A DNA stretch of 64,000 nucleotides from an uncultured Chitinophaga sp. (lineage in GTDB: Bacteria; Bacteroidota; Bacteroidia; Chitinophagales; LD1), in NCBI GenBank assembly GCA_964493695.1, contig CAZBPG010000004.1, positions 40,466 through 104,465 of the forward strand. The letters run 5' to 3'. Position 1 is the stretch's first letter, and every line of letters begins with the position of its first letter. The notes beneath the pieces were generated by a model. The model did not search any database. It was given only the letters and a program-made list of their open reading frames with translations, and was not told the origin of the DNA. Both the position numbers and the translations under genes were made by a program. Below, in pieces: positions 12,001 through 59,347 of this stretch.

Positions 12001-15000
12001 GTGAACGATCCTACTTCGCCTAATCCGTCAGCGTGTCCTGTGGTAACTACAACTTATACGGTAATTGTAACCGATCAAGACGGATGTGAGTCTTCGGATA
12101 CAATTCAGGTAATAGTGAATGATCCGCCTAATGCGAGCGTGGTTGGATTGAATTCATCGTACTGTATAAATGATCCAAACGTAGTTATGACGGGTTCGCC
12201 TTCAGGAGGGATATTTAGCGGTCCAGGAGTTACCGGTAATGTATTTCAACCGGCTTCAGTGGGTGAAGGATACTGGTGTATTCAGTATTCATATATGGAT
12301 CCTCTGACAGGTTGTGCAGATGATACTACAATTTGTGTGACGGTTAATCCATTGCCGGCAGTTACTGCCAGCGGATTTGCTCCTGCATATTGTCGATTTG
12401 ATGCACCGGTAACCTTAGTGGGTTCTCCGGCAGGCGGAATCTTCACCGGAAGCTCTGGATTGTCGGGTGTTGATGGAAGCACTTTCGAACCTTCAACAGC
12501 AACAGTGGGTAATAACGTTATTACTTATACTTATACAGATCTTCAGAGCGGTTGCAGCAACACTTACATCTTTGTTATCAACGTAAAAGATGCACCGGCA
12601 ATCAGCATTTCGGCTTCAATCGATACATCATGTCAGGGCGCTTCGGTAACATTTACACCGGCATTCAGTTTTGATGTATTTAATATAGTTTGGAGTTTAG
12701 ATGGAGGTGGTAACATTGGTGCGGGATTGAATCCTTTTACTTATACACCTGAAACTACAGATTACTGCGTGATAGCAACAGCTATTAATACTCCTAACGG
12801 GTGTGTATCTACTGATACAATTTGCGGTCATGTGAACCAACCACCGGTTGCTAACGATGACTTTGCTGAAACATGTGAAGAGATACCTGTTCCTATTCAG
12901 GTTATTCTCAACGACACAGATCCTGAGGGAGATAACAGTGATGTAACGGTTATAACCACCGGTCATGGTAGTTCGACTGTTAGTGGAAACGTTCTTACTT
13001 ATACTTCGAATGTAGATTACTTCGGTTCAGATACCATCACTTACCAGGTGTGCAACACTGCTTGTGTAAATGCTTGCGATACAGGCACTGTAATTGTCAG
13101 CGTTTGTCCGGTGAACGACCCTCCTGTGATTACCGATGTGGTTGATACCATTTACATCAATACGAGCGACACTGTTTGTCCTCCGATTGAGGATGTGGAT
13201 GATGCTATCAATACACTTACAGTTACCACCTTCGATTGTGATACAATTAACGGGACCATCAGCGTCTTAAACGGGTGCATCGTGTATGTTCCAACTACTG
13301 ATTGGACGGGTACTCAGGTGATTTGTGTTTCGGTTTGCGATACATCGGGCACCTGTGATACCGGAACGGTAACTATTGTGGTTATTCCGGCAAATAATCC
13401 GCCAATTGCGCAAAAAGTAAGCGTAGTTACTTGTGAAAGAACAACGGTTGGTGTTAACGTGGCCTCTGCTACTACAGACCCGGACGGTAACCTGATGACC
13501 TATAGTTACGGAGCGGTGACAGGTCCTGGAACCGGAATCTGGGTGGTTACAGGAAACGGTTCGGGCGTATTTGTTGCGAACACACCGGGTGTTTACCATA
13601 TACCTTACTCTGTTTGCGATATTAGTAACATTCCTGTTTCACCACTTTGCGATACAAACGAAATTGTGGTGACTGTCATTGAGTGTGATTCTTCAAATAC
13701 ACCACCGGTTGCTACCGATGATGAAGTGATTACAACAGTAAATACCCCAATTGTTGTGAACGAATTGGCAAACGATTATGATGCCGATGGCGATCCGTTG
13801 AATGTTGCTATTATTTGTGGTCCGGGCTTGGGTCAGGCACAGGTATCGTTGAATCCTGATAATACCATTAGTTATTCATCTCCGGTAGCCGGCATTGATA
13901 CTATTTGCTATACCATCTGCGACCCATCGGGTGCTTGCGATACAGCGATTATTGTTATCCATGTCAACACAACGGTAGATGCGAACCATCCACCGGTAGC
14001 AGTTGATGACTTTGAAACTACTACTTATCAAACACCGGTAGATATCAACGTTCAGGGTAACGACCACGATCCTGATGGAAATCCGATTACAACCACTTCG
14101 ATTCCGGGTCCGCCTACCGGTGGAACAGCCACCATTAATCCGGACGGAACAATCAATTATGTTCCTACGACAGCAAATGCATACGATCCGGATACTTTCA
14201 CTTACGTGATATGCGATAATGGAAATCCTGCACTTTGCGATACTGCAACAGTGGTAGTTTACATCATCAATTCTGTGGTTGCTGTAGATGAGTGCACAGA
14301 AACAGGATATAATCACCCTGTGGTGATTAATGTGTTGAGTAATGATTACGACCCGGATATCATCGACTCCATTTGGGTTTCATCGTCATTTAATCTTCAG
14401 AATACACAGGGAACTACGTTTGTAGATTCTAAGGGAATGATTCATTACATTCCTAATTCTGATAGTTGCGGATACATTGACACATTCGCTTATATTATAC
14501 AGGATGAGGGAGGTGCTGTTGACACCGGCTACGTTTGTGTGGTGATTACCTGCTGCAAGGCTCCGATTGCTGTTATGGACACAGCACAGGTTATCTCGGG
14601 CGATTCAGTTTCCGTCAACGTTACGTTGAACGACACAATTGACGGGCCTACTCCGGTGCATGTTGTAGTTATAGGGCCATCACATGGTACTGCTTACTTT
14701 GTAGATAGCGTAAATGTGATGTATGTGCCGGATGCAGGTTATTGCGGATATGATACGTTCACCTATGCTGGTGAAAACCTTTGTGGTTTCGATACCGGAT
14801 TTGTTGTAGTGAACGTTATCTGCAACACTAAGCCTATAGCGTTTAACGATACATTCAATCTCTGCCGCTTCGATACACTTACTCTTTTCCCTGAACTGAA
14901 TGATGTGGATGCAGATGGCAACACTCTGACAATTTCAGGAATCGGAACACCAAGCAGTTCGGGTTTACTTACAGTGCTTGCTTTAACGGACAGCTCGGTG

Positions 15001-15957
15001 ACTGTAATTTCCACCGGTGTTCTTGGAGATGTTACGGTTGATTACTACATCTGCGATAACGGATTGCCTGTTAAATGTGATACCGGCACGATAGTCATTC
15101 ATATCGACCCTTGTGATAAGCCGGTGGTTAAGGATATTTATGATACCATCCAGTCATGTGCACATAACGATTCGATTTGTCTGGATGAATATGTTACGCT
15201 AAGCGACACGTATACCTGGTCAATCACCGGAATGTGTGCTCCGCAAAACGGTACGGTTACCAACTTGGCAACATGTTTCACTTATACGCCAAACCAGAAT
15301 TTCTTTGGCAATGACACTTTCTGTGTAATTGTGTGCAGTAATATTGAAATATGTGACACCGCTCTTGTAATTATGACTTCTGTTGATTGTAACATTCAGG
15401 CCGTAGACGAGTCATGCGATTTAGATACTACAATTATCAATACACCGATAACAGTAGATATTCTTGCCAACGATATTATTCCTTGGGCAGGCGATACTAC
15501 GGTTACGTTACTGACGCTTCCAGCAAATGGTTCAGCTGTTGTAAACAACGATAATACTGTAACCTACACGCCTAATACTGATTATAAAGGCAGCGATGAG
15601 TTTAGCTACTTAGTGTGTGCTGTTACCGGTGATTACGTTTATTGCGATACAGCAACAGTTTGTATCACTGTGATAGACACCATACAACCTTGCTACATAC
15701 CAAATGCATTCTCACCAAACGGTGATGGTGCAAATGACCTTTACAAGATACCTTGCGATAAGAATCCGAGAGCAACGCTTCGCGTGTTCAACCGTTGGGG
15801 TGTTGAAGTTTGGTACAGCGAAGGTGCATATGCAAACGATTGGGGTGGAACGAACATGCAGGGTACACCGCTGCCTGATGGAACTTACTACATCATTTAC
15901 GAATACAATGACGGCACCGGTAAGCGGGAAGCCAAGTTTGTTGTAATTCAACGATAA
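1..15957 (+). CDS. Giant (>5,300 aa, 5' end outside window) T9SS-secreted cell-surface repeat adhesin with type B (gliding-motility/CHU_C-type) C-terminal sorting domain
   Basis: One uninterrupted frame runs from nt 1 to TAA 15955-15957. Residues PIVLTDPSNP at nt 1-30 repeat the internal unit GSITLTDPSNP, so the gene starts upstream of the window and the TTG at nt 10 is not the start. The translation shows Ig-like W-T-G-P modules, cadherin-like ~95-100-aa units, PKD-like units, 23 GG-x-x-P-Y-x-Y-x-W modules, a second cadherin-like block and a C-terminal IPNAFSPNGDGANDLY...FNRWG...DGTYYIIYEY sorting domain. Confidence 0.93.
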   Translation, partial: PIVLTDPSNPSSPTNVIASPNPICINNTLTLSATGSSLSWTGPSSYSATGSPVTRLITTTLFGGTYSVTQTVANCTSAPATVTVVVKPTPGITSTSFTNPTTCGGTNGSITLNGLFADSTYSVTYDKNSVAQGPFTIAANGSGQVVISGLTAGTYSNFVVTLSGCPSNPVIGSITLTDPSNPPAPTNVTASPNPICSGNTLTLSATGSNLAWTGPLSYSGSGSPVTISITAVTQGGIYSVTQTVANCVSPPATVTVVVNPTPIITSTSGANPTTCGGTEGTITLSGLNTSTSYTVNYNKNASPVGPVLISTNVSGQLVITGLTAGTYSNIVVTLTGCPSAAAGPITLTDPANPAAPVATNSGPSCYGDTLKLFASNVLNGTYVWTGPGGYTSTEQNPIRVNATPAMSGVYSVVVTVANCNSTPATTSVTVASCPPVAVNDNYSTNEDQSLTVSAPGVLTNDYDPANPQQPITANTTPVSNPVHGTVTLNADGSFTYTPSANFNGLDSFIYSICDNEAPPACDTATVYITVVPVNDPPVVPDTTVTTPEDTAITVCIPITDPESGTQSHLIQSIYCGPSNGTIGSATINNGLLPHTLCVTYNPNLNFNGTDSICLVICDNGTPQLCDTTKVTIIVTPVNDPPIAVEDYYVSCLDTAIVKNVMTNDSDVDGPALAVTGALWGPSIGTLSLFANGSFTYTPTPFFNSLDSFSYRICDNGTPNLCDTAVVILDYTCTNTPPVAVNDNYTIPEDDTLIGNVSTNDYDPNGDSLIYNTTPVAGVSHGSLTLNNDGTFTYVPTPNYFGPDSFVYSVCDNGVPPLCDTATAYITVIPVNDPPYIPDTTVTTPEDTPTTVCIEITDIDVTNTHVSIVGCNPANGSLSSLSVNNLSNPHLVCVTYSPNTNFNGTDSFCIVVCDNGVPSACDTSVVTIIVTPVNDPPVANNDNYSTNEDTQLNVGAPGVQSNDSDPDGTTLTSTLVSGTSNGSVTLNPNGSFTYTPNTNFTGTDTFVYSVCDAGIPLPPLCDTAIVVITVNPVNDPPFIPDTTVTTPEDTPTTVCIPITDPETTTQIHLAFLCDNPNSGSITAPSVNLASNPHTVCVTYTPNTNFNGTDSFCVIVCDNGNPILCDTSIVTIVVTPVNDPPVANNDNYSTGEDTPLNVGAPGVQSNDSDPDGTTLTSTIVTGTSNGSVTLNPNGSFTYTPDANFNGTDTFVYSICDAGIPLPPLCDTAIVVITVNPQNDPPYVPDTTVTTPEDTAITVCLPISDGDVGQQYIATICGTPANGLITFGPVVNNGSIPPTVCVTYTPNTNFNGIDSLCITVCDNGIPFLCDNSIVKINVTPVNDPPVANNDSYTTPEDTPLNVTPSGVLGNDNDPDGTALTSTLIDSTSNGSLVLNGNGSFTYVPNSNYNGTDTFYYSACDAGIPLPSLCDTAMVVITVTPGNDPPEIPDTTVTTCEDCPITVCLPITDTDSLDVHSYTSLCPGQNGTVTGTTINQSTNTLCFTYTPYLNVNGSDTVCFIVCDNGTPQGCDTTTITILITPVNDPPYADTIYVVTFENQPVGVNVASATGDPEGNPLSYSYYGVIPGGGTYGITGNGAIVVYPNPGFTGTFAIPYSVCDLSPYPVNILCDSAAIIVTVLPEGDTLINHSPVASNDYVTTSLNTPVVVNELANDYDPDGDALQVTVTCTPDDGNYTVNPNGTINYFPDNGFFGFDTICYTICDPTAVNNPKPLCDNAIVVIYVSTDSTSFENDPPVAVDDFAYICADANATLNLLLNDNDPNGDAITSVSIIDNVDYGVLSNAGFGFYVYTPNGSAALNDTLLYEICDNGTPSLCDTGMAVIFINATPVVTPSVGSAIVCSNDNVNITFTSSVPGTVISWTATNGTSGTGNINTVLTNNTSVDQVVTYTVSGTTGFGCGSSALIIPVTVKPRPVITFTSNGSIFCSGEQVVINANSNIAGTTYTWSGTNGSSGTGSLISDNPVNSGTANITVTYTIIPTYNGCVGNTLAVDVTVKPQPSLTVNPATQTICSGAPISIAITPSISGTSVNWFGSNGNSGNSLTINDSPFNFGSSNITVTYTVNGNYNGCPANTVFATVVVRPRVVADAGQDKTVVACTGSCVIIGSSPTGAGGSGTLAYAWSPSAGLNDSTLANPTACGLLVNTTYTVIVSDGSGCSATDQVTITSTPNPLSAEAGAGGALCLGSGDSVMLGGFPTAVGGVAPYTYTWSPLTGLNLTNNANPDAFPTTTTEYFVTVTDQIGCQSVDSTVVTVYPVLVANAGADTTVCATFAAQLGGTPTASGGSGTGYTYIWSPTVGISNVNDANPTATPAVLTTYSVYVADGNGCTATDNVIVTVHSNPTAHAGPDKTIVTCSGDSTTIGDVPAVTGGTGPYTYSWTPAIGLSNDTIANPVVKGITVTTTYMLSITDANGCVSTDNVTVNVVTNTLQAQAGPDEAVCSNNNCVQVGGIPTAVGGTPPYVYDWSNGTSLSDSTASNPLACPSSTTTYTVVVTDSKGCTATDAETVTVNPSPSANAGPDTSVCSGSSIAIGGAPTATGGTPGYAYSWNPTVGLSLPNVANPSASPVVVTTYQLIVTDAKGCAALDEVTVTPRPNPVVDAGADKTLVSCVADTAFMLVNVTGGTSPYSFVWSPATGLSSSTVQNPYATGLTVTTSYQVAATDTFGCSATDFIVVNVVQSTLQADAGNDGQLCGNSGSSVSLGGIPTAVGGTSPYTYNWGTSTSSVSNLPNPTVSPTVTTTYYVTVTDSKGCTSVDSVTVVFNPAPSADAGTDTTMCSGFCVTIGGTPATVGGTGPYQFLWSPTVGLNSNNNPNPLACPLVTTTYNLLVTDANGCQSSDAVTITILSNPTANAGPDQTLVNCSSDSITIGGSPAASGGAGGYAYSWSPSGGLSADSIANPFVKGINVSQLYTLVVTDLYGCSAEDAVVVNVVPGNLTAEAGSGGSYCQGIGGSVTLGGVPTAVGGTPSYSYSWSGGLSPVANPVASPASTTTYYVTVSDSKGCIAVDSVTVTVNPAPMANAGADTTLCGGLSVMLGGEPTASGGTPGYTYVWAPSTGLSNSAASNPTATPNATTTYTVRVTDANGCSASDAVQVTILALPVADAGADQTLVACSADSVQIGGSPSASGGTTPYTYDWSPNGGLSDTSASNPYVSLLGSSTTFTLVVTSNNGCSASDQVTVNVNNSTLVAEAGNDVAFCEGASVSITLGGSPTAVGGTAPFSYSWSPATGLSSTSAANPVATPLVTTTYSVIVTDATGCVAGDTVRITINPRPVVSAGLADTVCAGSAIQIGGTPTASGGTGSYSYSWNLGLPAVANPIINPIATLTYVVTVTDSLGCSNNGSVTIKVNQNPTADAGADQTVVACPDACVTLGGSPTSTGGGGGYLYAWAPSAGLNNTGLSNPSACNLSQSLTYNLTVTDANGCTAIDQVSVTVNQSTLAADAGNDKSICAGQPICITIGGTNAVSGGTSPYVIDWSPVAGICNSNVIPNPDVNPTDTTTYVLLVTDALGCIAVDSMVVYANPAVTASVSPDTAICQGGSALLGSSPTGSGGTSPFTYSWNPGSGLNNTTSANPIASPSATTSYCVTVTDAVGCSSSTCQTVTVNAGVTADAGQDRTITECPGAFTILGGSPTGSGGSNNYSYAWSPTANLNGSTIPNPIATGLTVTTTFTVTVTDNATGCFSTDQVVVTVLKTNLGVDAGSNKVFCANSTGCVVIGGNPTAIGGQPPYIYQWAPVTGMNDPTIANPCVAPINTTQYLVTVTDQLGCFEVDSMTVIVSPLIAVNAGNDTSICTATSVILGGNPPAVGGTTPYTYAWSLGAFPSSSAHPTATPVSNSSYTLVVTDSLGCSSSDIVNVALRPLPTASAGPDATITACTADSAVIGGAPTASGTTPPYTYEWNPPVALNNANASNPVVQNLGFTTLYTVTVVDTFGCSATDQTQVTVLPNTLFAEAGVNIGSLCANVGGCVTLGGNPTVTGGVPAYSYNWLGGVNDPTSPNPSACPVVTTTYTVIVTDQDGCESSDTIQVIVNDPPNASVVGLNSSYCINDPNVVMTGSPSGGIFSGPGVTGNVFQPASVGEGYWCIQYSYMDPLTGCADDTTICVTVNPLPAVTASGFAPAYCRFDAPVTLVGSPAGGIFTGSSGLSGVDGSTFEPSTATVGNNVITYTYTDLQSGCSNTYIFVINVKDAPAISISASIDTSCQGASVTFTPAFSFDVFNIVWSLDGGGNIGAGLNPFTYTPETTDYCVIATAINTPNGCVSTDTICGHVNQPPVANDDFAETCEEIPVPIQVILNDTDPEGDNSDVTVITTGHGSSTVSGNVLTYTSNVDYFGSDTITYQVCNTACVNACDTGTVIVSVCPVNDPPVITDVVDTIYINTSDTVCPPIEDVDDAINTLTVTTFDCDTINGTISVLNGCIVYVPTTDWTGTQVICVSVCDTSGTCDTGTVTIVVIPANNPPIAQKVSVVTCERTTVGVNVASATTDPDGNLMTYSYGAVTGPGTGIWVVTGNGSGVFVANTPGVYHIPYSVCDISNIPVSPLCDTNEIVVTVIECDSSNTPPVATDDEVITTVNTPIVVNELANDYDADGDPLNVAIICGPGLGQAQVSLNPDNTISYSSPVAGIDTICYTICDPSGACDTAIIVIHVNTTVDANHPPVAVDDFETTTYQTPVDINVQGNDHDPDGNPITTTSIPGPPTGGTATINPDGTINYVPTTANAYDPDTFTYVICDNGNPALCDTATVVVYIINSVVAVDECTETGYNHPVVINVLSNDYDPDIIDSIWVSSSFNLQNTQGTTFVDSKGMIHYIPNSDSCGYIDTFAYIIQDEGGAVDTGYVCVVITCCKAPIAVMDTAQVISGDSVSVNVTLNDTIDGPTPVHVVVIGPSHGTAYFVDSVNVMYVPDAGYCGYDTFTYAGENLCGFDTGFVVVNVICNTKPIAFNDTFNLCRFDTLTLFPELNDVDADGNTLTISGIGTPSSSGLLTVLALTDSSVTVISTGVLGDVTVDYYICDNGLPVKCDTGTIVIHIDPCDKPVVKDIYDTIQSCAHNDSICLDEYVTLSDTYTWSITGMCAPQNGTVTNLATCFTYTPNQNFFGNDTFCVIVCSNIEICDTALVIMTSVDCNIQAVDESCDLDTTIINTPITVDILANDIIPWAGDTTVTLLTLPANGSAVVNNDNTVTYTPNTDYKGSDEFSYLVCAVTGDYVYCDTATVCITVIDTIQPCYIPNAFSPNGDGANDLYKIPCDKNPRATLRVFNRWGVEVWYSEGAYANDWGGTNMQGTPLPDGTYYIIYEYNDGTGKREAKFVVIQR
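1300..5520 (+). repeat. First block of ~14 cadherin-like (~95-100 aa) tandem domains inside the giant adhesin
   Basis: Units of the form PPVA(V/N)NDxY..ED..L.V...GV..ND.DP(D/N)G...GSFTYTP...F.G.D.F.Y..CD.G.P..CDTA.V.ITV.PVNDPP recur. They alternate with PP.IPDTTVTTPEDT..TVC.PI.D.. units. Confidence 0.8.
6292..12129 (+). repeat. 23 tandem ~85-aa modules (core GG-x-x-P-Y-x-Y-x-W-S/N-P ... TTTY.V.VTD..GC...D.V.V) organised as a 3-module super-repeat
   Basis: I parsed the modules by hand from the translation. Types a (ADAG.DKT.V.C...TL), b (AEAG..G..C) and c (ANAG.DT..C) recur in strict a-b-c order, giving 7 full triplets plus a-b. The span is 5,838 nt, or 1,946 aa for 23 modules. Confidence 0.85.
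12832..15690 (+). repeat. Second block of cadherin-like tandem domains inside the giant adhesin
   Basis: PPVA(N/T/V)DD... ND(T/Y)DP(E/D)GD ... CDT(A/G).V.V units resume at NQPPVANDDFAETCEE and continue to ...YCDTATVCITVIDT. Confidence 0.75.
15691..15954 (+). other. T9SS type B C-terminal sorting domain (TIGR04131-like) of the giant adhesin
   Basis: The sequence is CYIPNAFSPNGDGANDLYKIP...LRVFNRWGVEVWYSE...WGGTNMQGTPLPDGTYYIIYEYNDGTGKREAKFVVIQR. Similar tails occur at 43525-43765 (NAFTPNNDGVNDVF...NRWG...GTYYYI) and, on the minus strand, at 63657-63950. Confidence 0.85.
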
Positions 15958-25190: not shown

Positions 25191-25317
25191 ATGTATTTCT
25201 TGTATTCCGTGCTAACCTGTATTCTGTATTTTCCCTACGCCTTCCGTGCTACACCTACTTTTTTTCTCCCAATTAATCGCGGCTAAAAATATACTTTCGC
25301 ACACAATTTTTTTTACG

Positions 25318-26712
25318 ATGAACAAACGTCAGAAATACCGCGATCTTATCAATCAGACTTTCGACTTTCCGCAGCGCGATTTCAAGGAGGAAAAAAACGT
25401 GCTTTACTGGAACGACCTGCCGCTGATGGACATTATTGCCCAGTATGGCAGCCCCCTCCGGTTGACTTACCTTCCCAAAATTTCGCAGCAAATACAAAAA
25501 GCGCGCAGGCTGTTCAATTCATCTATTGCCAACAACAATTACAGTGGCGATTACCATTACGGCTACTGCACCAAAAGTTCGCATTTCTCTTTTGTGCTCG
25601 AAGAAGCTCTGAAGAATAAAGTATTTCTCGAAACCTCTTCCGCTTTCGATTTCGAAATCATCAAGCGGATGGAAGAGAAGAAAAAGTTTAAGAAAGAGCA
25701 ATACATCGTCTGCAATGGGTTTAAGACCGATGCTTACGTCAACAAGATTATCGAGGCGTTCAATAACGGGTTCAAGAATGTTATTCCCATACTCGATAAT
25801 TTAGATGAAGTAGATAAGTTCAGTTCCATCAGCGAGCCCATGAACATAGGTATGCGCATTGCAGCCGAAGAAGAACCTAAATACGAATTCTATACTTCGC
25901 GCCTCGGCATCCGGTACAATGATATTGTTCCGCTCTACGAACAAAAGGTAAAGAACAACCCGAACCTGAAAATGAAGATGCTTCACTTCTTCATCGACAC
26001 CGGTATTAAAGATGTAAACTATTACTGGACGGAATTTCACAAAGCGCTGGGCGTGTATTGCGACCTTAAAAAGATTTGCCCCGAGCTCAATACCATCAAC
26101 CTGGGCGGAGGAATGCCCATTAAACATTCGCTGGCGGCAGATTTCGATTACGAATACATGATCAACGAAATTATTTCGCAGATAAAAACCACCTGCAACA
26201 ACGAAGGCGTTGATGAACCGGATATCTTCACCGAGTTCGGAAGTTATACGGTAGGCGAAAGCGGTTGTGTAATTTTCAGTGTGCTGGGCGTTAAACGTCA
26301 GAACGACCGCGAAACCTGGTATATGCTCGATGGTTCGCTGATGAATAACTTACCCGATGTGTGGGGCTTATCGCAGCGGTTTATCATGCTGCCTATCAAT
26401 AAATGGGACGATGAATACAAGCACGTAAACCTGGGCGGCATTACCTGCGATGTGGGCGACTATTACAACAGCGATGCACACATCAACCAGGTGTATCTTC
26501 CTAAAATTAAGCAGGGCGAAAAACTTTTTATCGGTTTCTTCAACACCGGTGCCTATCAGGATACGCTGAGCGGATACGGTGGCATTAAACATTGTCTGCT
26601 TCCATCGCCTCCGCATATTCTGGTTGACGAAAAGAAAAAGGGAGAGTTCACTTACAGGATTTTTGCCGAAGAGCAAACGGCAGAGAGTATGATGAAGATT
26701 TTAGGGTATTAG
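25318..26712 (+). CDS. Type III PLP-dependent decarboxylase (arginine/ornithine/DAP decarboxylase fold; probable arginine decarboxylase)
   Basis: 464 aa. A lysine-containing segment, YHYGYCTKSSHFSFVLEEAL, sits where the PLP lysine of this fold is expected. INLGGGMP and GSYTVGESG segments are typical of the alanine-racemase-like barrel decarboxylases. I placed the start at ATG 25318 (MNKRQKYRDLINQTFDFP). Confidence 0.72.
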   Translation: MNKRQKYRDLINQTFDFPQRDFKEEKNVLYWNDLPLMDIIAQYGSPLRLTYLPKISQQIQKARRLFNSSIANNNYSGDYHYGYCTKSSHFSFVLEEALKNKVFLETSSAFDFEIIKRMEEKKKFKKEQYIVCNGFKTDAYVNKIIEAFNNGFKNVIPILDNLDEVDKFSSISEPMNIGMRIAAEEEPKYEFYTSRLGIRYNDIVPLYEQKVKNNPNLKMKMLHFFIDTGIKDVNYYWTEFHKALGVYCDLKKICPELNTINLGGGMPIKHSLAADFDYEYMINEIISQIKTTCNNEGVDEPDIFTEFGSYTVGESGCVIFSVLGVKRQNDRETWYMLDGSLMNNLPDVWGLSQRFIMLPINKWDDEYKHVNLGGITCDVGDYYNSDAHINQVYLPKIKQGEKLFIGFFNTGAYQDTLSGYGGIKHCLLPSPPHILVDEKKKGEFTYRIFAEEQTAESMMKILGY

Positions 26713-26774: not shown

Positions 26775-26886
26775 TACTCATTTTGTTTAAACAAATACCC
26801 GCTTTATTGATTTTATTACTCATTATGATAAAAATTTTACTCATTATTACTCAATAATTACTCATTTATTAAACAGAACTACTCAT
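26775..26886. repeat. Six helically phased TACTCA(T) boxes in the convergent speA-like/orphan intergenic region
   Basis: TACTCA starts at 26775, 26817, 26838, 26848, 26859 and 26880, giving spacings of 42, 21, 10, 11 and 21 nt. Three copies read ATTACTCA(T/A). Confidence 0.75.
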
Positions 26887-26907
26887 TTTTATACAAAAAT
26901 CACGTGT

Positions 26908-27849
26908 TTAATAGATTGCCTTTATAGTAAATGAGCCTGCAGTGTTGGCAGAAGAATTAGCTACGGTAATAACACTGAGCTTAGGTGGTATTTTGAAATT
27001 TTTATTGGGCAGAACGGTGGTTACAAATACCGATGTGCCGGTTCCTTTGTACAAATCTAACGGCACAGTGCCTGTATTGCTCAGCGTTCCGCCAATAACA
27101 ATACCGCGCAGGCATTTTTGTGAAGCAGGTTTCAGTTTTACCCTGCGTGTGCGTGGCCCAGCGGGCTGTTCCACCACGGTAAAACCGTATAATTCCATGG
27201 CCCGGAAATTTTTAGTGTAAAGTTTTTTCAGATAACCGCCTATGTCCCTCAAATGCTTTACCACCGGTGCGCGGAAAAGGTCGCGCTGCTGGCGTTCGTT
27301 CTCTGCATCTTTTTGTGCCTGTACCAATTGTAAGTGAAAATTTAAAGCGGCACCGGCTTTGGTTTGCAGCGCGTTCAGGTCAATGCCCTGCAGCGTTAAA
27401 TAGGGCTGCAAAGGGCTGCTGCCAGCGGGGAAAGAATCGTGTTTTTGTTTCAGCAGCTTAAAAATTTCGAACATACCGGTGAACGATGCAGGGTAGTCTA
27501 AGCGACTTTTGCCTTTTACCGGCAGCCCCCAAAGGCCAAGTTGTCGGGTGTTGGGTGCCAGCAGGTTTTTAAGAAATTGCCCCACCGGTTTTATCATTTC
27601 CTTTACCGGTGCAAAATTTATATCGCGATGTTGCTTGAAAGTTTCGGCATCTTTGCTGTGCCGGCTGCGGTTGGTTTCGTGCGTCTGCGCTTCTACCATT
27701 GCCAGTTCATCAAGGGTTAAATCAATATCTTTTTCGCTTAAGTACAAATTCAGCACACTCGCAGCGCCATCGGCATCGTGCTTCGCCTTTACGTTACCAA
27801 TGAGGATGTATTGTTCCTCAAACACGGACGAAAATTTAAGCCGGCTCAT
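26908..27849 (-). CDS. Hypothetical protein (313 aa), helical N-terminal two-thirds and beta-rich C-terminus; no family recognised
   Basis: A long ORF with an ATG start and coding-like composition. It has no signal peptide and no motif I can assign. Confidence 0.7.
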   Translation of the reverse strand: MSRLKFSSVFEEQYILIGNVKAKHDADGAASVLNLYLSEKDIDLTLDELAMVEAQTHETNRSRHSKDAETFKQHRDINFAPVKEMIKPVGQFLKNLLAPNTRQLGLWGLPVKGKSRLDYPASFTGMFEIFKLLKQKHDSFPAGSSPLQPYLTLQGIDLNALQTKAGAALNFHLQLVQAQKDAENERQQRDLFRAPVVKHLRDIGGYLKKLYTKNFRAMELYGFTVVEQPAGPRTRRVKLKPASQKCLRGIVIGGTLSNTGTVPLDLYKGTGTSVFVTTVLPNKNFKIPPKLSVITVANSSANTAGSFTIKAIY

Positions 27850-31598: not shown

Positions 31599-31955
31599 TT
31601 ATTTTTCGTGTCCGATTAAATCTGAGTTATCTAATTCGAGTAAATTACATTCTTCAAACATAGAAACTATTTTATCCCAATTGTTTTCTATCAAGTTGAA
31701 AAGCTCCCGGTTAACAATGTTCCCTGTTGTAATAAAAAGAAGTTGAGTTGGTTTCTGATGGAGTAAATGCGTATGAAGAAAATCGGAATCCTTAGTAATC
31801 ACAATCCATTTTTCTTCCGAAGAAATTTTTCTGATAAGGCTATCCGAGGTTCTTTCCTTATCCGGTAAGTCATCGGTGTGAATTACTTCAACTCCTTTTT
31901 TCTGTAACAAGCCTTTCAGTTTGTAAGGAAGTTGTGCATCAATCAAAAATCTCAT
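31599..31955 (-). CDS. DUF5615-type (Mut7-C/PIN-like) putative toxin
   Basis: 118 aa: MRFLIDAQLPYKL...VIHTDDLP....IVITKDSDF, the small PIN-like pattern. It overlaps the upstream DUF433 gene by 4 nt (ATGA). Confidence 0.7.
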   Translation of the reverse strand: MRFLIDAQLPYKLKGLLQKKGVEVIHTDDLPDKERTSDSLIRKISSEEKWIVITKDSDFLHTHLLHQKPTQLLFITTGNIVNRELFNLIENNWDKIVSMFEECNLLELDNSDLIGHEK

Positions 31956-36011: not shown

Positions 36012-36398
36012 TCAACCCAAGCTACGAATTCTGACTTTTAGGGTATCTAACTTGGTGCGTTCGGCAACAAACATAAAGGGCGACTCTAATTCAAACTCAC
36101 TTGCAAACAGAGTTTTGAGCGTGTCGATAGTTAACAACGGAATAATGTGACCCGGTCGCAGATATACGATACCGGTGAAGGTAACCTTCTTCATAAAAAC
36201 TATTTTGCCAAAATCGCTGTCGTGAGTAAGAACTATGCTTTGCGTTACGTGTGCGGTCTCTAATATTTTTTCATCATCTGCCGAAGTCAGCTTGAGTTCT
36301 GAAACTGTTTTAACGGATGCTACATGAGCTTTGAGAAAATCTACAACAACAGGATGTATGTTTTCATCACATACAAACGAATACTCCGTCAGCTTCAT
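36012..36398 (-). CDS. DUF5615-type (Mut7-C/PIN-like) putative toxin, second copy
   Basis: 128 aa with FVCDENIHPVVVDFLK......SIVLTHDSDFG. It overlaps its DUF433 partner by 4 nt (ATGA). Confidence 0.68.
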   Translation of the reverse strand: MKLTEYSFVCDENIHPVVVDFLKAHVASVKTVSELKLTSADDEKILETAHVTQSIVLTHDSDFGKIVFMKKVTFTGIVYLRPGHIIPLLTIDTLKTLFASEFELESPFMFVAERTKLDTLKVRIRSLG

Positions 36399-49503: not shown

Positions 49504-50451
49504 ATGAATTCCAATTCCAATTCCAATTCCAAATTCCAAATTCCAAATTCCAAATTTCTGGTTGTTATCTGCGGCCCTACTGCTATCGGCAAAACTTCTC
49601 TTGCAATTGATTTAGCGAAGAATTACAATTCCGAAATCATCTCTGCCGATTCACGCCAGTTCTATCGCGAAATGAACATCGGCACAGCAAAACCAACGGA
49701 AGAACAACTCGCGCAAGTGCCTCACCACTTCATCAACAACATTTCTATCCACACCAAAAACTACAGTGCAGGTAAGTATGAGTTTGAAGTGCTGGAATTT
49801 CTCGAGAAGTATTTTCGGGAGAAAGATATAGCAGTGATGGTTGGCGGCTCCGGTCTTTTTATCAACGCGGTTTGCAGCGGCTTCGACAAATTTGAAAAAG
49901 AAGACGATAGCCAGCTATGGGTTACCCGCAGGTTCCTCAACGAAAAAAATCTGGAATGGCTGCAGGCAGAAGTAGAGCGCTTAGACCCCGAATACTTCGC
50001 CATTGTTGACAAAAAGAACCCAATGCGTCTCAAACGAGCCCTCGAAATAATTTACACCACCGGTAAAAAATATTCTGAGCAGCGCATCGGAAAAAAAACA
50101 GAACGACCTTTCAACATCATTAAAATCGGCTTGACCCTGCCGCGCGAAATTCTCAACGAACGAATCAACAACCGGGTTGATGAGATGATGAAAACAGGTT
50201 TGCTGGAAGAAGTAAAGCAACTCTACCTCCACAAAAAACTTCACACACTAAACACCGTTGGCTATACCGAACTGTTCGATTTCATCGAAGACAAAATTTC
50301 TTTAGAAGATGCGGTTGCCCTTATCAAACAAAACACGCGCAATTACGCCAAGCGGCAAATGACCTGGTTCAAAAAAGATGACGGTATTAAATGGTTTCAA
50401 CCGGAGCAGAAAGAAGAAATAACCGAATACATCAATTCAAAAATCCAATAG
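49504..50451 (+). CDS. miaA: tRNA dimethylallyltransferase
   Basis: P-loop VVICGPTAIGKTS, plus SADSRQFYREMNIGTAKP and a typical MiaA C-terminal half. The only in-frame ATG precedes the microsatellite. Confidence 0.9.
   Translation: MNSNSNSNSKFQIPNSKFLVVICGPTAIGKTSLAIDLAKNYNSEIISADSRQFYREMNIGTAKPTEEQLAQVPHHFINNISIHTKNYSAGKYEFEVLEFLEKYFREKDIAVMVGGSGLFINAVCSGFDKFEKEDDSQLWVTRRFLNEKNLEWLQAEVERLDPEYFAIVDKKNPMRLKRALEIIYTTGKKYSEQRIGKKTERPFNIIKIGLTLPREILNERINNRVDEMMKTGLLEEVKQLYLHKKLHTLNTVGYTELFDFIEDKISLEDAVALIKQNTRNYAKRQMTWFKKDDGIKWFQPEQKEEITEYINSKIQ
49507..49551 (+). repeat. Compound microsatellite (AATTCC)4(AAATTCC)3 inside the first 16 codons of miaA
   Basis: Read directly from the sequence: ATG aattcc aattcc aattcc aattcc aaattcc aaattcc aaattcc aaatttctg. 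It encodes NSNSNSNSKFQIPNSKF. A tandem octamer CGCCTCTG x2 lies just upstream at 49483-49498. Confidence 0.9.
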
Positions 50452-54958: not shown

Positions 54959-55666
54959 TTAGTGACAATACTTTTTAATTACTGCATCCACATTACTAAG
55001 CCCCAACTTTCGAGCCTGGCTTAAATCTATACACCCAGTTTCTTTTTGTCCTGACATAATTTTTGCCCTTCCTCTGCTGTAATAAGCCTCAGCATCTTTA
55101 GGATTAAATTCAATAGCCTTGTTTAAATCCGCTATAGCTCCTTGGTAGTCTGGCAAGTTAACTTTTGCTATTCCCCTATTGTAATATACGTTTCTATGTT
55201 TAGGATTAAATTCAATAGTCTTATTGTAATCAGCTATTGCGCCTCGGTAGTCTTGTAATACATCTTTTGCGCATCCTCTGTTAAAGTAAGCTAGTGCATA
55301 CTTAGGGTTAAGCTCAATAGCTTTGTTATAATCTGCGATAGCCCCTCTATAGTCACGTTGGTCTTGTTTTGAAAATCCTCTGCCATAATAAGCTCTTGCA
55401 AATTTGGGATCAAATTCAATAGCCTTACTGAAATCTACTATAGCGCCTTGGTATTCTTTTAGGTTATATTTTGCACTTCCTCTGTTATGATAAGCTAATG
55501 CATCCTTAGGATTGATTTCAATTGCTTTGTTGTAATCTGTTATAGCTCCACGGTAGTCTTGTAATTTACCTTTTGCAACTCCTTTATCAATATACTCTTG
55601 GCTTGTTTGGCAGTAGCAGTACATGAAGGAGTTAAACGCAACAATTAAAAAAAACGTAGTTTTCAT
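54959..55666 (-). CDS. Secreted protein made of ~6 near-consensus TPR repeats
   Basis: Signal peptide MKTTFFLIVAFNSFMYCYCQ (ATG 55666). Then 34-aa units of the form AYxNRGxAKxxLxDYxGAIADYNKAIExNPKxA, five regular copies plus one degenerate. Confidence 0.85.
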   Translation of the reverse strand: MKTTFFLIVAFNSFMYCYCQTSQEYIDKGVAKGKLQDYRGAITDYNKAIEINPKDALAYHNRGSAKYNLKEYQGAIVDFSKAIEFDPKFARAYYGRGFSKQDQRDYRGAIADYNKAIELNPKYALAYFNRGCAKDVLQDYRGAIADYNKTIEFNPKHRNVYYNRGIAKVNLPDYQGAIADLNKAIEFNPKDAEAYYSRGRAKIMSGQKETGCIDLSQARKLGLSNVDAVIKKYCH

Positions 55667-55785
55667 GTTGATTGGTTTTTTGCCTCCTAAAAATAAAAAT
55701 AATAGACTGTTTATCATCCGCTATTCGAGATGTTAGCCTGCGCATCCCGAACGTAAGATAACAAGCGATTTTTAATCACTAAACA

Positions 55786-56195
55786 AACAGATTAAAAACC
55801 TGTAACCATCTATAGGTACTACATGCACTTTCTTGAAAGAAAACACCATTACTAATCTGTTATTCATTATAACAGTTCTGTCATTACGCATTACTAATCT
55901 GTTATTTAGTAAAACAGATTTGATATTATATATTACTAATCTGTTTTTATCTATAACAGACCTGTTTTATAACATAACAAATCTGTAATTATGTAATACA
56001 GACCTGTTATTTGACATTACTAATCTGTTATTTAAAATTACAGACCTGTTTTACAGTATAGCAAATCTGTAATTATAAAATACAGACCTGTTGTTATACA
56101 TTACTAATCTGTTATTTAGTATAACAGATTAGCAATGGTGCATAACAGTTCTGTTATGCTTTTAAGGGTCTTGATTTTTTCAAAAAACCTGTTTT
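55786..56195. promoter_or_regulatory. Array of 15 core (+2 flanking) ACAG/CTGT-core sites with ~21-bp average phasing, organised as 42- and 84-bp higher-order repeats, filling the divergent control region
   Basis: ATTACTAATCTGTT occurs at 55848, 55890, 55932, 56016 and 56100. (A/T)ACAGACCTGTT occurs at 55955, 55997, 56039 and 56081. A(A/G)CAAATCTGTAATT occurs at 55976 and 56060. AACAGTTCTGT occurs at 55871 and 56144. AACAGATT occurs at 55913 and 56123. Weaker copies sit at 55786 and about 56185. Confidence 0.8.
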
Positions 56196-56274
56196 ATTTT
56201 GCAGTAATTCTTCCATTTCGTAACTAAACTCAGGATTTATGCCCCTAAGCCGATGTAACCGGAATTATCACCGC

Positions 56275-56910
56275 ATGAAAATTCACCAGCGCGGAACCCT
56301 TGCCAGCGGAATGCTGGAAACCTACTACAAAAACAACCCTCCGTTTACGGCCCCGGTTATGCCCAAGGCCGATTTTAAAAAACTGGTGAACGACTACAAC
56401 AGCCGCTATGCCGATTTTGCCAACGGTGGCAGGGCGCAGAAAGCCGACTGGCTGATTGCCCGTGACACTTTGATACATGGGCTTGACCTGATAGCCGACA
56501 ATGTGGACGAAGTAGCGGGCGGTAACGAAGATATTATTCTGGAAGGGGGCTTTCAGCCGCGTAAAACTTTCCGCTCCGGTAAAAATACGCCACCGGTGCC
56601 CGAAATTGAATCGCTGGAACACGGTGCCACCGGTCAGTTGTTTGCCACCTGCAAACTGCTTGAGCCGAACACGTTTTACGGCTGTATAATAAGCGAAGGC
56701 GCACCGCTTGATGAACGGGTGGTGATGCGTGCCGGTAAGCTGGTTATTCCTAAAGGGCTTACCACCGCTATTCAAATTGACGAAACCAAGAAACGCAAAA
56801 AGTCTTTTGTAAACCTTACCCCAATGGTTACCTACTACTTTTATTTTTTTGCGCGCAACTCGGCCGGTGTAAGTTCGCTGAGCGAGCCACGGGCTATTAT
56901 TTGTTTGTAG
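56275..56910 (+). CDS. Orphan protein (211 aa): helical N-terminal half, FN3/Ig-like beta C-terminal half
   Basis: I placed the start at ATG 56275 (MKIHQRGTL...). The C-terminal ...LTPMVTYYFYFFARNSAGVSSLSEPRAI resembles the final strands of an FN3 domain. No family recognised. Confidence 0.65.
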   Translation: MKIHQRGTLASGMLETYYKNNPPFTAPVMPKADFKKLVNDYNSRYADFANGGRAQKADWLIARDTLIHGLDLIADNVDEVAGGNEDIILEGGFQPRKTFRSGKNTPPVPEIESLEHGATGQLFATCKLLEPNTFYGCIISEGAPLDERVVMRAGKLVIPKGLTTAIQIDETKKRKKSFVNLTPMVTYYFYFFARNSAGVSSLSEPRAIICL

Positions 56911-57235: not shown

Positions 57236-59347
57236 TTGAATTCCGGTCTTTCGTTTCAATATCCTTTCTGGTTTATCATTTTCTGTGTAGCGCTGGGTGC
57301 GGCTTATGCGGCATTGCTTTACTACCGCGACACTACCTTCGATGAAAAAACCTCGGGCAGTAAATGGTGGAAAAATGCCATGACGTGTTTCCGGTTTGTG
57401 GCGGTTACGGTGCTGGCGGTTCTTCTTCTTTCGCCTTTTATAAGAACCCGCAACACCCAAAAATTTAAACCGGTGGTGGCGGTGATAAACGACAACAGCG
57501 AATCGGTAAAAAACAGTTTCGGAAAAGATTCAACTGCATACCAAAAGAAACTCCTCGTGCTCATAGATAAGCTGAGCGAGAAATATGAAGTGGCACAGTT
57601 CAATGCCGGTGATGAACTTAAACGCGGCATTGATTTTTCGTACCGCGATAAATCAACCGACCTCAGCCATGCCATTGATGAAGTAAACGATTTGTATTAC
57701 AACCAGAACCTGGGCGCGGTGGTTATTGCCAGCGATGGTATTTATAACAAGGGCGTAAATCCGGTTTATTCGGCTGCCAGGGCTTCGTATTCGGTTTACA
57801 CTATTGCGCTGGGCGACACTACTATTCAGAAAGACCAGAAACTTTCGAATGCCTATTACAACAAGATAGCTTACCTCAACGACCGGTTCTCGCTCAGGGT
57901 AGATGTGGAAGAAAATAATTTGTCGGGCAGGAATGTAAAACTGAGCGTGTATGAAATAGTAACCGGCAGCGATGCAAAGCTTATTCAGAGCAAAGACATT
58001 TCGTATACCTCCGATAACTATTTCCAGAGTTTTGATTTTGTGCTGCCTGCCGATAAAGCGGGCATTGCGCATTACCGCATTTCGCTTTCAAACACCGAAG
58101 GCGAAATTACTTACCGCAATAACGTGCGCGATGTATTTGTAGAAGTGCTGGACAGCAGGCAGAAGATTCTGCTTGTAGCCAACTCTCCGCATCCGGATAT
58201 TGCCGCCTTTAAAGCCGCTATCGAAAGCAATAAGAATTATCAGTTAGAGGTGGAGTATGCCGAAACATTTTCGAAAAAACTGAACGATTACAATCTGGTT
58301 ATTCTTCATCAGTTGCCTTCTGCGGTTAATAAAGTGAGCAACATTTTAAGCGATGCAAGAGATTTGAAAAAATCGCTGCTCTTTGTTCTCGGCTCTCAAA
58401 CTTCCATCCCCGAGTTTCAAAAAGCGCAGAACGGTTTGGTAATAAAAGGCAATGCCGATAAGTTTAACGAAGTAACCGCTAACGTGGCAAAAGATTTTGC
58501 CCTCTTTACCCTCTCCGATAAAACGGTGCAGACTATTCCTAAACTGCCGCCCTTCAGTTGTTTCTTTGGTGAATACAGTGCCAATCCATCGTCTAAAAAA
58601 CTTTTGCAGCAAAAAATAAATGCAGTGGAAACCGATTTTCCGCTTTGGCTGTTCAACGAAACCGGTGACGAAAAATTCGGGGTAATTTGTGGCGAAGGTT
58701 TGTGGCGCTGGAGATTGTATGATTATCTCATCAACAAAAATCAGGAAGCTACGAACGAACTCATCAACAAAACGGTGCAGTATCTTTCGGTAAAAGCCGA
58801 TAAGCGGCCTTTCCGCGTTAACCTGCCTAAGAATATTTTTCAGGATAACGAAGCCATCACTTTCGATGCCCAGCTTTACAACGCCAATTACGAACTCATC
58901 AACGCTGCCGATGTAGAAATGAAAATAAAAGACGAAGACGGCAAAGAATACGATTACAAATTCAACAGAACAGAAAACGCTTACAACCTGAATGCAGGTT
59001 TTTTACCGGTGGGCAATTACGCTTACAATGCTTCGGTAAAATTCGGCAACGGAACTTATACGGCTAACGGAAAGTTTTCGGTTAGCCCGTTGCAGTTAGA
59101 AGAAATGCGCACCCGTGCCGACCATCAGGTGCTGTTTCAACTGGCATCGCAGCACAACGGTGCCATGCATTACTTAAACGACCTGGAAAAAATTGCCGCT
59201 GAAATTGATTCGAAAAATCAACTCAAGCCCATTCTTTACGATACCTTTATGACGGAGAGCGCCATTAATCTCAAATGGATTTTCTTTCTGTTGCTTACAC
59301 TCATTTCTGCCGAGTGGGTTATCCGAAAATATTTAGGAGGGTATTAA
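57236..59347 (+). CDS. 703-aa membrane protein, function unknown (N-terminal double TM, large soluble region, C-terminal TM)
   Basis: TTG start; the frame opens 3 codons upstream and there is no in-frame ATG nearby. TM segments are FWFIIFCVALGAAYAALLYY, FRFVAVTVLAVLLLSPFI and WIFFLLLTLISAEWVI. I am not confident of any family assignment. Confidence 0.75.
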   Translation: MNSGLSFQYPFWFIIFCVALGAAYAALLYYRDTTFDEKTSGSKWWKNAMTCFRFVAVTVLAVLLLSPFIRTRNTQKFKPVVAVINDNSESVKNSFGKDSTAYQKKLLVLIDKLSEKYEVAQFNAGDELKRGIDFSYRDKSTDLSHAIDEVNDLYYNQNLGAVVIASDGIYNKGVNPVYSAARASYSVYTIALGDTTIQKDQKLSNAYYNKIAYLNDRFSLRVDVEENNLSGRNVKLSVYEIVTGSDAKLIQSKDISYTSDNYFQSFDFVLPADKAGIAHYRISLSNTEGEITYRNNVRDVFVEVLDSRQKILLVANSPHPDIAAFKAAIESNKNYQLEVEYAETFSKKLNDYNLVILHQLPSAVNKVSNILSDARDLKKSLLFVLGSQTSIPEFQKAQNGLVIKGNADKFNEVTANVAKDFALFTLSDKTVQTIPKLPPFSCFFGEYSANPSSKKLLQQKINAVETDFPLWLFNETGDEKFGVICGEGLWRWRLYDYLINKNQEATNELINKTVQYLSVKADKRPFRVNLPKNIFQDNEAITFDAQLYNANYELINAADVEMKIKDEDGKEYDYKFNRTENAYNLNAGFLPVGNYAYNASVKFGNGTYTANGKFSVSPLQLEEMRTRADHQVLFQLASQHNGAMHYLNDLEKIAAEIDSKNQLKPILYDTFMTESAINLKWIFFLLLTLISAEWVIRKYLGGY

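Follow-up and report, generated by a model that had tools for sequence, protein, structure and literature searches.

Contig CAZBPG010000004.1 of an uncultured Chitinophaga sp. was analysed over a stretch of 64,000 nt (64 kb; hereafter the window). Between two protein-coding genes of this stretch lies an array of 15 head-to-tail units of 21 bp each (55847..56161, no strand assigned), the final base of which is located 78 nt before the ATG (56239) of a gene encoding a 223-aa protein with N-terminal helices and a C-terminal fibronectin type III (FN3) domain (56239..56910, + strand). The array was delimited on the basis of Tandem Repeats Finder (TRF), a register table, autocorrelation, an information profile and matches to a dyad consensus; the gene was delimited on the basis of its homologues, a conserved start and an AlphaFold2 (AF2) model. 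A promoter-proximal or leader block (56162..56238, +) separates the two. The GC content of the array is 25%, compared to ~44% for the window.

TRF detected a single array at 55847-56128 with periods of 21, 42, 84 and 126, and a repeat search of the region returned 11 in-register copies with a spacing of 21 bp throughout. When the region was written out in a 21-bp register from 55847, CTGT was found at offset 10 in 13 of the 15 units and ACAG at offset 4 in 8 of the 15; at least one of the two tetramers is present in each unit. The order of units in this register table, A D A E A B C B A B C B A E D, is the same as that given in a preliminary description of the locus made from its sequence. The alternation of 18- and 24-nt spacings put forward in that description was an artefact of the tetramer chosen as the centre of each site, and the true register is a uniform 21 bp. 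Likewise, the weaker copies that it placed at 55786 and about 56185 are out of register; they are the two copies of AAAAACCTGT at 55794 and 56183 (see below). Five exact copies of ATTACTAATCTGTT (the A motif) and six copies of ACAGNNCTGT are present in the window, all within the array, with ~0.6 expected by chance in either case.

The autocorrelation of 55847-56161 was tested against 1000 dinucleotide-preserving shuffles. At lag 21, the self-identity of the array was 0.585 relative to 0.311 in the shuffles (z = 10.4); at lag 42 it was 0.681 (z = 13.9), and at lag 84 it reached 0.740 (z = 14.5), the highest value of all lags. In the same comparison, lags 10, 11, 20 and 22 showed background levels. 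The array is also the top-scoring segment at lag 21 of the entire 64 kb. With z values of 10-14.5 for the periods of 21, 42 and 84 relative to shuffled controls, the non-random periodic array recognised in the preliminary description is real, and it is helically phased. Two 84-bp higher-order repeats, each composed of units A-B-C-B, occupy 55931..56098 (55931-56014 and 56015-56098, no strand assigned; TRF period 84 with 78% matches, lag-84 identity 0.74). The array further contains inverted repeats with 52-nt arms (73% complementary) and 41-nt arms (78% complementary). These inverted repeats support the mirror-like layout noticed earlier, but such a layout follows from quasi-palindromic units combined with the 84-bp repeat. 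The mirror-like layout was not seen in the arrays of the closest relatives.

Several other features of the region were considered and set aside. An open reading frame (ORF) within the repeats (55833-55988, 51 aa, TTG start) was discounted as an artefact of the repeat sequence. A CRISPR (clustered regularly interspaced short palindromic repeats) array was ruled out, the units being contiguous and without spacers. The generic pattern (WACWNNNNWGTW N9)x4 gave 24 matches in IMG/VR, all of them unrelated 21-bp tandem repeats made up mostly of perfect copies, and senses the period alone. Elsewhere in the window, the second-best segment at lag 21 (26814-26898, identity 0.41) is a short array of TTACTCAT-containing repeats with a spacing of ~11/21 bp, situated between the convergent ORFs 25246-26712 (+) and 26908-27849 (-).

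We compared the locus with those of close relatives (L002-L012), the proteins of which are 57-74% identical to that of the window. These loci lie mostly in different neighbourhoods, and two of them are in named Chitinophagales metagenome-assembled genomes (MAGs). At every one, a 21-bp-periodic array was found directly upstream of the homologue. When aligned from the ATG, the arrays of the window, L002, L007, L006/L012, L008-10 and L011 (the close clade) ranged from 11 to 15 units, with individual counts of 15, 15, 13, 12, 13 and 11. Each array terminates at position -78 relative to the start codon, and its 21-bp phase is the same throughout the clade. The 100 nt immediately preceding the ATG could be aligned without gaps across six close-clade lineages (the window, L002, L006, L007, L008/9 and L011), and it is from this alignment that the promoter-proximal block was defined. 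Close-clade loci share the array-promoter junction down to the single base.

The sample of distant relatives comprised L013 and L014 (29% and 31% identical overall) and 31 metagenome loci (L040-L070), the latter gathered with an alignment of a different subfamily. With another alignment, a search for related loci yielded only two in genome contigs and none in metagenome contigs. Over the N-terminal 113 residues, the distant relatives are 21-35% identical to the window protein. Periodicity was examined at lags 6-89 for the 37 loci with at least 250 bp of upstream sequence, which represent ~25 distinct lineages after removal of near-duplicates. The top lag was 21, 42, 63 or 84 in 37 of 37 loci, the chance value being 4/84 per locus, and in 32 of them these were the four top lags. 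The signal was weak in four loci (L059, L060, L063 and L064). Arrays with the 21-bp period persist at identities to the window protein down to 24-25%, and the copy number is ~10-20 units across the family.

Between lineages, the sequences of the units are unrelated (for example, AAAGTAGTACCATTAATCAGT, AAAATAGGCGCATTAATGAGA, ATCCCATTGGATTATGCTCCA and AATCATTTATGAAAAGGGTTT), and compound units of 42 and 63 bp also occur. Despite this repeated rewriting of the unit, no period of 20 bp, 22 bp or any other non-multiple was found in any lineage. That the period stayed constant while sequences were rewritten points to selection acting on the length of the unit and hence on helical phase (two B-DNA turns). 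In ~293 kb of DNA from the window and the related loci, arrays of this type were found only upstream of the FN3-family gene, with one exception (in L060); the array is therefore tied to the gene rather than being the common dispersed satellite, without a link to adjacent genes, against which the preliminary description had cautioned. The exception, L060 1940-2190, has a GC-rich repeat unit of 63 bp in which AACCATGCCT recurs at 21-bp intervals. A 489-aa ORF, probably for an ATPase, and a DUF4276 gene follow directly downstream of this repeat, which has no relation to the FN3-family gene at a distance of 3.7 kb. We found no prior description of such arrays in the literature. The window locus is one case of a family-wide pairing of the FN3 gene with a lineage-specific, helically phased 21-bp array, and from sequence comparison the array looks like a conserved control element not described before.

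Alignment of the units revealed a dyad core and a spacer. In close-clade arrays, the information content is concentrated at offsets 1-16 and drops at offsets 17-20; the unit consists of a 16-bp dyad core (ATTACWR-NN-YWGTAAT) and ~5 free bases; the top-scoring dyad axis was at offset 8.5 in 6 of 7 arrays. The consensus of the window units is ATWACWR-NN-YWGTWAT, with the dyad axis between offsets 8 and 9. Thirteen of the 15 window units fit the dyad consensus in register, and a single match was found elsewhere in the 64 kb. The commonest window unit, ATTACTAATCTGTTAT, is the reverse complement of ATAACAGATTAGTAAT of L002 in the same frame, and both orientations of the asymmetric unit were found inside the window array. 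Because the asymmetric unit is flipped both between and within arrays, the frame must be that of the dyad, as for a symmetric dimer. Read in this way, half-sites of alternating orientation would follow one another on a single face of the DNA at intervals of about 10.5 bp. A 16-bp core followed by a ~5-bp free spacer has the appearance of a protein-binding site. In distant lineages, clear palindromic cores were found in some units and none in others.

Comparison of near-identical relatives indicated how the arrays change. Their differences in array length involve whole units only: 42 bp between L048 and L049, 21 bp between L065 and L067, and two 21-bp gaps between L002 and L007. Whole-unit changes in length are by themselves mechanical for tandem repeats. 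A second kind of change was found between L046 (1468-1744) and L047 (4999-5275), for which the flanks and the gene are ~82% identical and the arrays are equal in length and phase. In this pair, each unit has changed at the same ~six positions (CATTCTATCTT versus ATCCCATTGGA). Such uniform changes show that unit homogeneity is maintained, i.e., that the units undergo concerted evolution.

Bacteroidetes promoters are characterised by a -33 element, TTTG, and a -7 element, TAHHTTTG (PMC6847099, PMC2483708). In the promoter-proximal block of the window, cTTG at 56170-56173 (+) is a putative -33 element with 3/4 fit, and TTATTTTG at 56194-56201 (+) is a putative -7 element matching 5/6 invariant positions. 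The array ends 8 bp before the conserved cTTG. Taking the G at -5, we infer from these elements a transcription start near 56206, which would put the end of the array at about -45 and the centre of the proximal dyad near -56.5. A sigma-70/terminator scan was uninformative, the promoter type being wrong for this phylum. The block also contains CAGGA (56231-56235, +) and the downstream copy of AAAAACCTGT (56183-56192, +), which lies in the part conserved among relatives. The upstream copy (55794..55803, +) is positioned 53 bp before the array. These are the only two copies in 64 kb, and they bracket the array as direct repeats (two copies were found in 5 of 100 shuffles). Similarly, L002 has AAAACCTTCTTT on either side of its array, and L007 has a near copy. 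The bracketing copies may mark a site for another protein, act as a pair in looping or be left over from the origin of the array.

The product of the downstream gene has no match in Pfam, NCBIfam, PHROGs or PADLOC, and neither a signal peptide nor a hydrophobic N-terminus was found. Its homologues share the start position of the 223-aa ORF. The AF2 model, built with 14 homologues, has a pLDDT of 88.5 and shows N-terminal helices (one of ~50 residues) followed by a beta-sandwich; FN3 domains were the sole matches, both when PDB and BFVD were searched with Foldseek and when PDB sequences were searched with a profile. A basic RKK motif is conserved within the FN3 domain, and the pI of family members spans 5.8 to 9.0. 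In an exhaustive profile search, 544 cluster representatives passed a threshold of E<=1e-3 and 216 passed the stricter one of E<=1e-10; almost all are 220-240 aa long. A separate profile search with a diverse family alignment returned 21 proteins only. One member is labelled 'fibronectin type III domain-containing protein [Chitinophagales bacterium]' by NCBI. The family occurs in Chitinophagales and probably in further Bacteroidota, and it is common in samples from lakes or bogs. No member was found among 72,556 plasmids, 50,697 phages or IMG/VR.

The locus is chromosomal DNA of a member of Bacteroidota, as the window encodes proteins with T9SS C-terminal sorting domains, miaA, Sua5/TsaC, ribE (riboflavin synthase) and a DEAD-box helicase. 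Upstream of the array is a gene for a TPR protein (54959-55666, -), with 5.1 copies of a 102-bp (34-aa) tandem repeat (window 54959-55717). Its true start is probably the ATG at 55666, as called in L001 (MKTTFFLIVAF..., signal-peptide-like), rather than 55717, and the intergenic region would then be 572 bp. The FN3 gene is followed by a 703-aa ORF (57236-59347, +) that has no match in Pfam, NCBIfam, PHROGs or PADLOC and is not kept beside the FN3 gene in relatives. L001 is a second assembly, of a near-identical strain (99.75%); its array is identical to that of the window, and all 12 differences between L001 and the window are inside the 703-aa ORF (57850-58099).

Three further observations concern the remainder of the window. 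The heptanucleotide AATTCCA is repeated ~7.6 times (97% matches) at 49507-49556, beginning 3 nt after the ATG of a miaA-like ORF (49504-50451). Since a 7-bp unit lies in a reading frame, a change in copy number would shift the frame; either the tract is phase-variable or the true start codon is located downstream. Two paralogous DUF5615/PIN_10 (PIN-like) genes, at 31599-31955 (-) and 36012-36398 (-), are 4 kb apart and may encode the toxin components of toxin-antitoxin pairs. A 5315-aa ORF at 10-15957 (+) enters near the left edge of the window.

What does the array do? In our judgement there is about an even chance that it serves as a set of sites to which a protein binds cooperatively and through which the adjacent promoter is controlled. 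According to this proposal, it would be a cis-regulatory row of 15 sites for a sequence-specific, probably dimeric, DNA-binding protein. Because the sites are spaced at exactly two helical turns, the bound molecules would share one face of the DNA and could touch each other. Beginning ~315 bp upstream, the row would extend to within ~8 bp of the putative -33 element, and its cooperative filling would produce a sharp promoter switch. The simplest form would be an activator array with the proximal site touching RNA polymerase; a repressive coat would be equally possible. The binder would be encoded elsewhere than next door, and candidates are regulators of the NarL/FixJ type (inverted heptads) or the LytTR type (21-bp register). 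So elaborate a control region suggests tight or very strong regulation of the FN3 gene.

Several points weigh against a promoter-controlling binding array. No regulator gene is conserved beside the module, as blastp clustering of 239 flanking ORFs showed no recurrent neighbour, and the Pfam assignments of the 30 nearest neighbours are heterogeneous (one XRE helix-turn-helix, one integrase, one Fur). The fast change of units between lineages would require an unlinked regulator to co-evolve with a single target, and within the 64 kb of the window no second site was found. The canonical -7 box is not enriched family-wide, either between the array and the ATG (perfect in 2/30 loci) or upstream of the arrays (1/20 loci); we infer that the promoter is non-canonical or activator-dependent, or that the start is elsewhere, and the placement of the array upstream of the transcription start is likewise a putative one. 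Dyad symmetry was significant in only some of the distant arrays, the automatic test over +/-8 bp being a weak one given the crude, threshold-based delimitation of arrays. To our knowledge, moreover, 15 sites are two to three times more than in any promoter array.

As a sub-case of the same proposal, the array could be composed of LytTR sites, that is, 9-10-bp boxes with 11-12-bp AT-rich spacers bound head-to-tail by a response regulator encoded elsewhere. We regard this version as unlikely. Documented LytTR sites are 9-bp repeats 12 bp apart, or a 10-bp core with an 11-bp AT-rich spacer, adding up to 21 bp (PMC2766830). The window array has the same register, with a uniform 21 bp, a 10-bp ACAGNNCTGT-type core and an AT-rich remainder. 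Within it, ACAGTTCTG and ACAGATTAG resemble ACAGTTAAG, which we take to be the AgrA box, and AACGTTGTA of L008 resembles TACGTTAAT, presumably the Pln-type box. In addition, a number of distant arrays consist simply of direct repeats and show no significant dyad, and L013, a 29%-identical relative, has a gene for a Response_reg+LytTR protein immediately upstream of its array. However, one such adjacency among well over 100 neighbouring genes is, by our estimate rather than by computation, about what chance would give in a LytTR-rich phylum. Employing the LytTR regulator of L013 as the tblastn query, we detected no LytTR gene anywhere in the window, nor in any of the other loci retrieved for the family. 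Among the 27 window ORFs scanned (26 with Pfam, one with NCBIfam only), which are a subset of those present, none carried a DNA-binding domain, in line with the earlier statement that no LytTR or other DNA-binding gene lies in the window. LytTR sites should also be head-to-tail in one orientation; the dyad axis in 6/7 close-clade arrays and the flipped units would not be tolerated by such a chain, and known LytTR promoters hold two boxes, not 10-20. The LytTR likeness pointed out in the preliminary description therefore holds for the 21-bp register and some of the boxes but not for the symmetry of the unit or its orientation, and a linked LytTR gene was seen in L013 only.

Another explanation, which we consider doubtful, dispenses with an external regulator: the FN3-family protein itself would bind or polymerise on its own array, with one protomer or dimer per 21 bp, for autoregulation or to form a nucleoprotein product. 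In a specific and likewise doubtful form of this idea, the protein would recognise its own 21-bp units and polymerise into a ~300-bp nucleoprotein filament, its specificity and the repeats co-evolving by concerted evolution. Such a module would account for the observations that the array and the gene alone always travel together, no other gene being conserved nearby, and that the units differ from lineage to lineage in the manner of Rep-iteron or ParB-parS pairs. In the comparison of L046 with L047, where the core of the array has been rewritten, the protein differences cluster in the N-terminal 50 residues (16/42), and the conserved basic RKK motif of the FN3 domain is consistent with DNA contact by the protein. 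On the other hand, the protein has no recognisable DNA-binding fold, its structural matches being FN3 only, and a family pI of 5.8 to 9.0 is not consistently basic. A protein targeting its own promoter alone would also need a further function to be selected. If self-binding were true, the family would be a new DNA-binding family, with a fold not known to bind DNA in bacteria, and the array would be a new chromosomal landmark or autoregulatory switch.

It is quite improbable that the array functions as RNA, transcribed in a long 5' leader and providing either sites for an RNA-binding regulator or hairpins that control translation or stability. In most family loci there is no canonical -7 box reliably placed between the array and the ATG, and terminator-like hairpins just upstream of the array in several loci (identified by eye) leave room for a dedicated promoter. 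The canonical promoter is, however, no more evident upstream of the arrays (1/20), and the close clade keeps a -33/-7-like pair downstream of the array. The array region folds well as RNA (z = -7.05), but this score is an automatic result of palindromic repeats, and stems formed by the units would have 2-nt loops. No Rfam match was found, only sub-threshold chance matches with E ~0.3-0.6. Finally, an exact 21-nt unit in every lineage is not explained by RNA, whereas it is explained by two turns of B-DNA.

Still less probable, in our view, is a purely structural role without a specific binder, in which small bends in phase would add up to a curve or loop upstream, so that the promoter is either stimulated or insulated. 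Conservation of the period alone, not the sequence, across the family would fit such a role, as would the AT-richness of most arrays and their position immediately upstream of the promoter region. Based on Fourier amplitudes in 20 lineages, however, the 10.5-bp phasing of A/T and AA/TT was no stronger than in column-shuffled arrays (with mean percentiles of 0.39 and 0.51), and the window array shows only background identity at lags 10 and 11. The GC content of arrays reaches 47% in the family. Furthermore, core-versus-spacer conservation, dyad symmetry and unit homogeneity are not required for curvature.

A role of the array in replication, segregation or transposition, as iterons, a partition centromere or the end of a mobile element, is very improbable: the ~21-bp repeats directly upstream of a ~220-aa gene are superficially iteron-like, the array is bracketed by direct repeats of AAAAACCTGT, L048 has an integrase gene upstream and the module is found in differing neighbourhoods, but the context is one of chromosomal housekeeping genes (miaA, Sua5, ribE, DEAD helicase), the helical and FN3 protein is not Rep-, ParB- or transposase-like, no family member was found in the plasmid, phage and IMG/VR collections, the exact junction with the promoter block is conserved, and no parA/parB- or parM/parR-type genes were found among the scanned nearest neighbours of the window and related loci.

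If the array is indeed a cooperative binding array controlling the adjacent promoter, the gene family would have a defining cis-element that is conserved in geometry (a 21-bp unit, 10-20 copies and a fixed promoter junction), not in sequence. It would provide a natural system for studying long phased arrays, in terms of cooperativity, switch sharpness and contact with RNA polymerase, and for studying the co-evolution of a tandem array and its binding protein through concerted evolution. Control of transcription in Bacteroidota beyond gut Bacteroides is poorly known, and arrays of this type are easy to recognise computationally. The analysis also flags an uncharacterised and fairly widespread family of Bacteroidota proteins, with hundreds of 50%-identity clusters and no curated Pfam or NCBIfam family.

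The array can be compared with several known systems. Plasmid iterons (pPS10, R6K, RK2) are tandem repeats of ~17-22 bp with a phasing of about two turns, located directly upstream of a small Rep gene, and their sequence co-varies with lineage. The window array differs from them in being chromosomal, in having three to four times more repeats and in preceding a gene for an FN3 product without Rep-like winged-helix domains. ArgR operators consist of two palindromic 18-bp ARG boxes 3 bp apart, with a centre-to-centre distance of 21 bp, and are bound on one face by an oligomer. They differ in the number of boxes (two) and in the ARG box sequence, which is unrelated to that of the window units, and there is no arginine-pathway context at the window. 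Sites of LytTR regulators (AgrA/ComE/PlnC/SilA) share with the array the exact 21-bp register and the placement just upstream of a promoter (PMC2766830). The known LytTR sites are, however, two head-to-tail boxes, whereas the window has 15 units with an internal dyad and flipped orientations.

BvgA, a response regulator of the NarL/FixJ family, binds inverted heptads as head-to-head dimers, which occupy a single face of the DNA at 22-bp intervals; at Pptx there are six in a row, and the proximal site abuts the -35 element (PMC7250471). The BvgA arrays of Bordetella (Pfha and Pptx) resemble the window array in the two-turn spacing on one face, with several sites that BvgA fills cooperatively. 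The window unit, ATTACAG-NN-CTGTAAT, can be read as a 7-2-7 inverted heptad, a likeness in sequence geometry alone. At the promoter-proximal end, the BvgA site abuts -35, and the window array ends 8 bp from the putative -33. The two differ in period (22 bp versus 21 bp here), in the number of sites (3-6 versus 15 here and 10-20 in the family) and in composition: BvgA promoters have one strong site together with weak ones, whereas near-consensus copies are found throughout the window array, the sequence of which is lineage-specific. The closest documented architecture is that of the BvgA arrays, relative to which the window array is two to three times longer.

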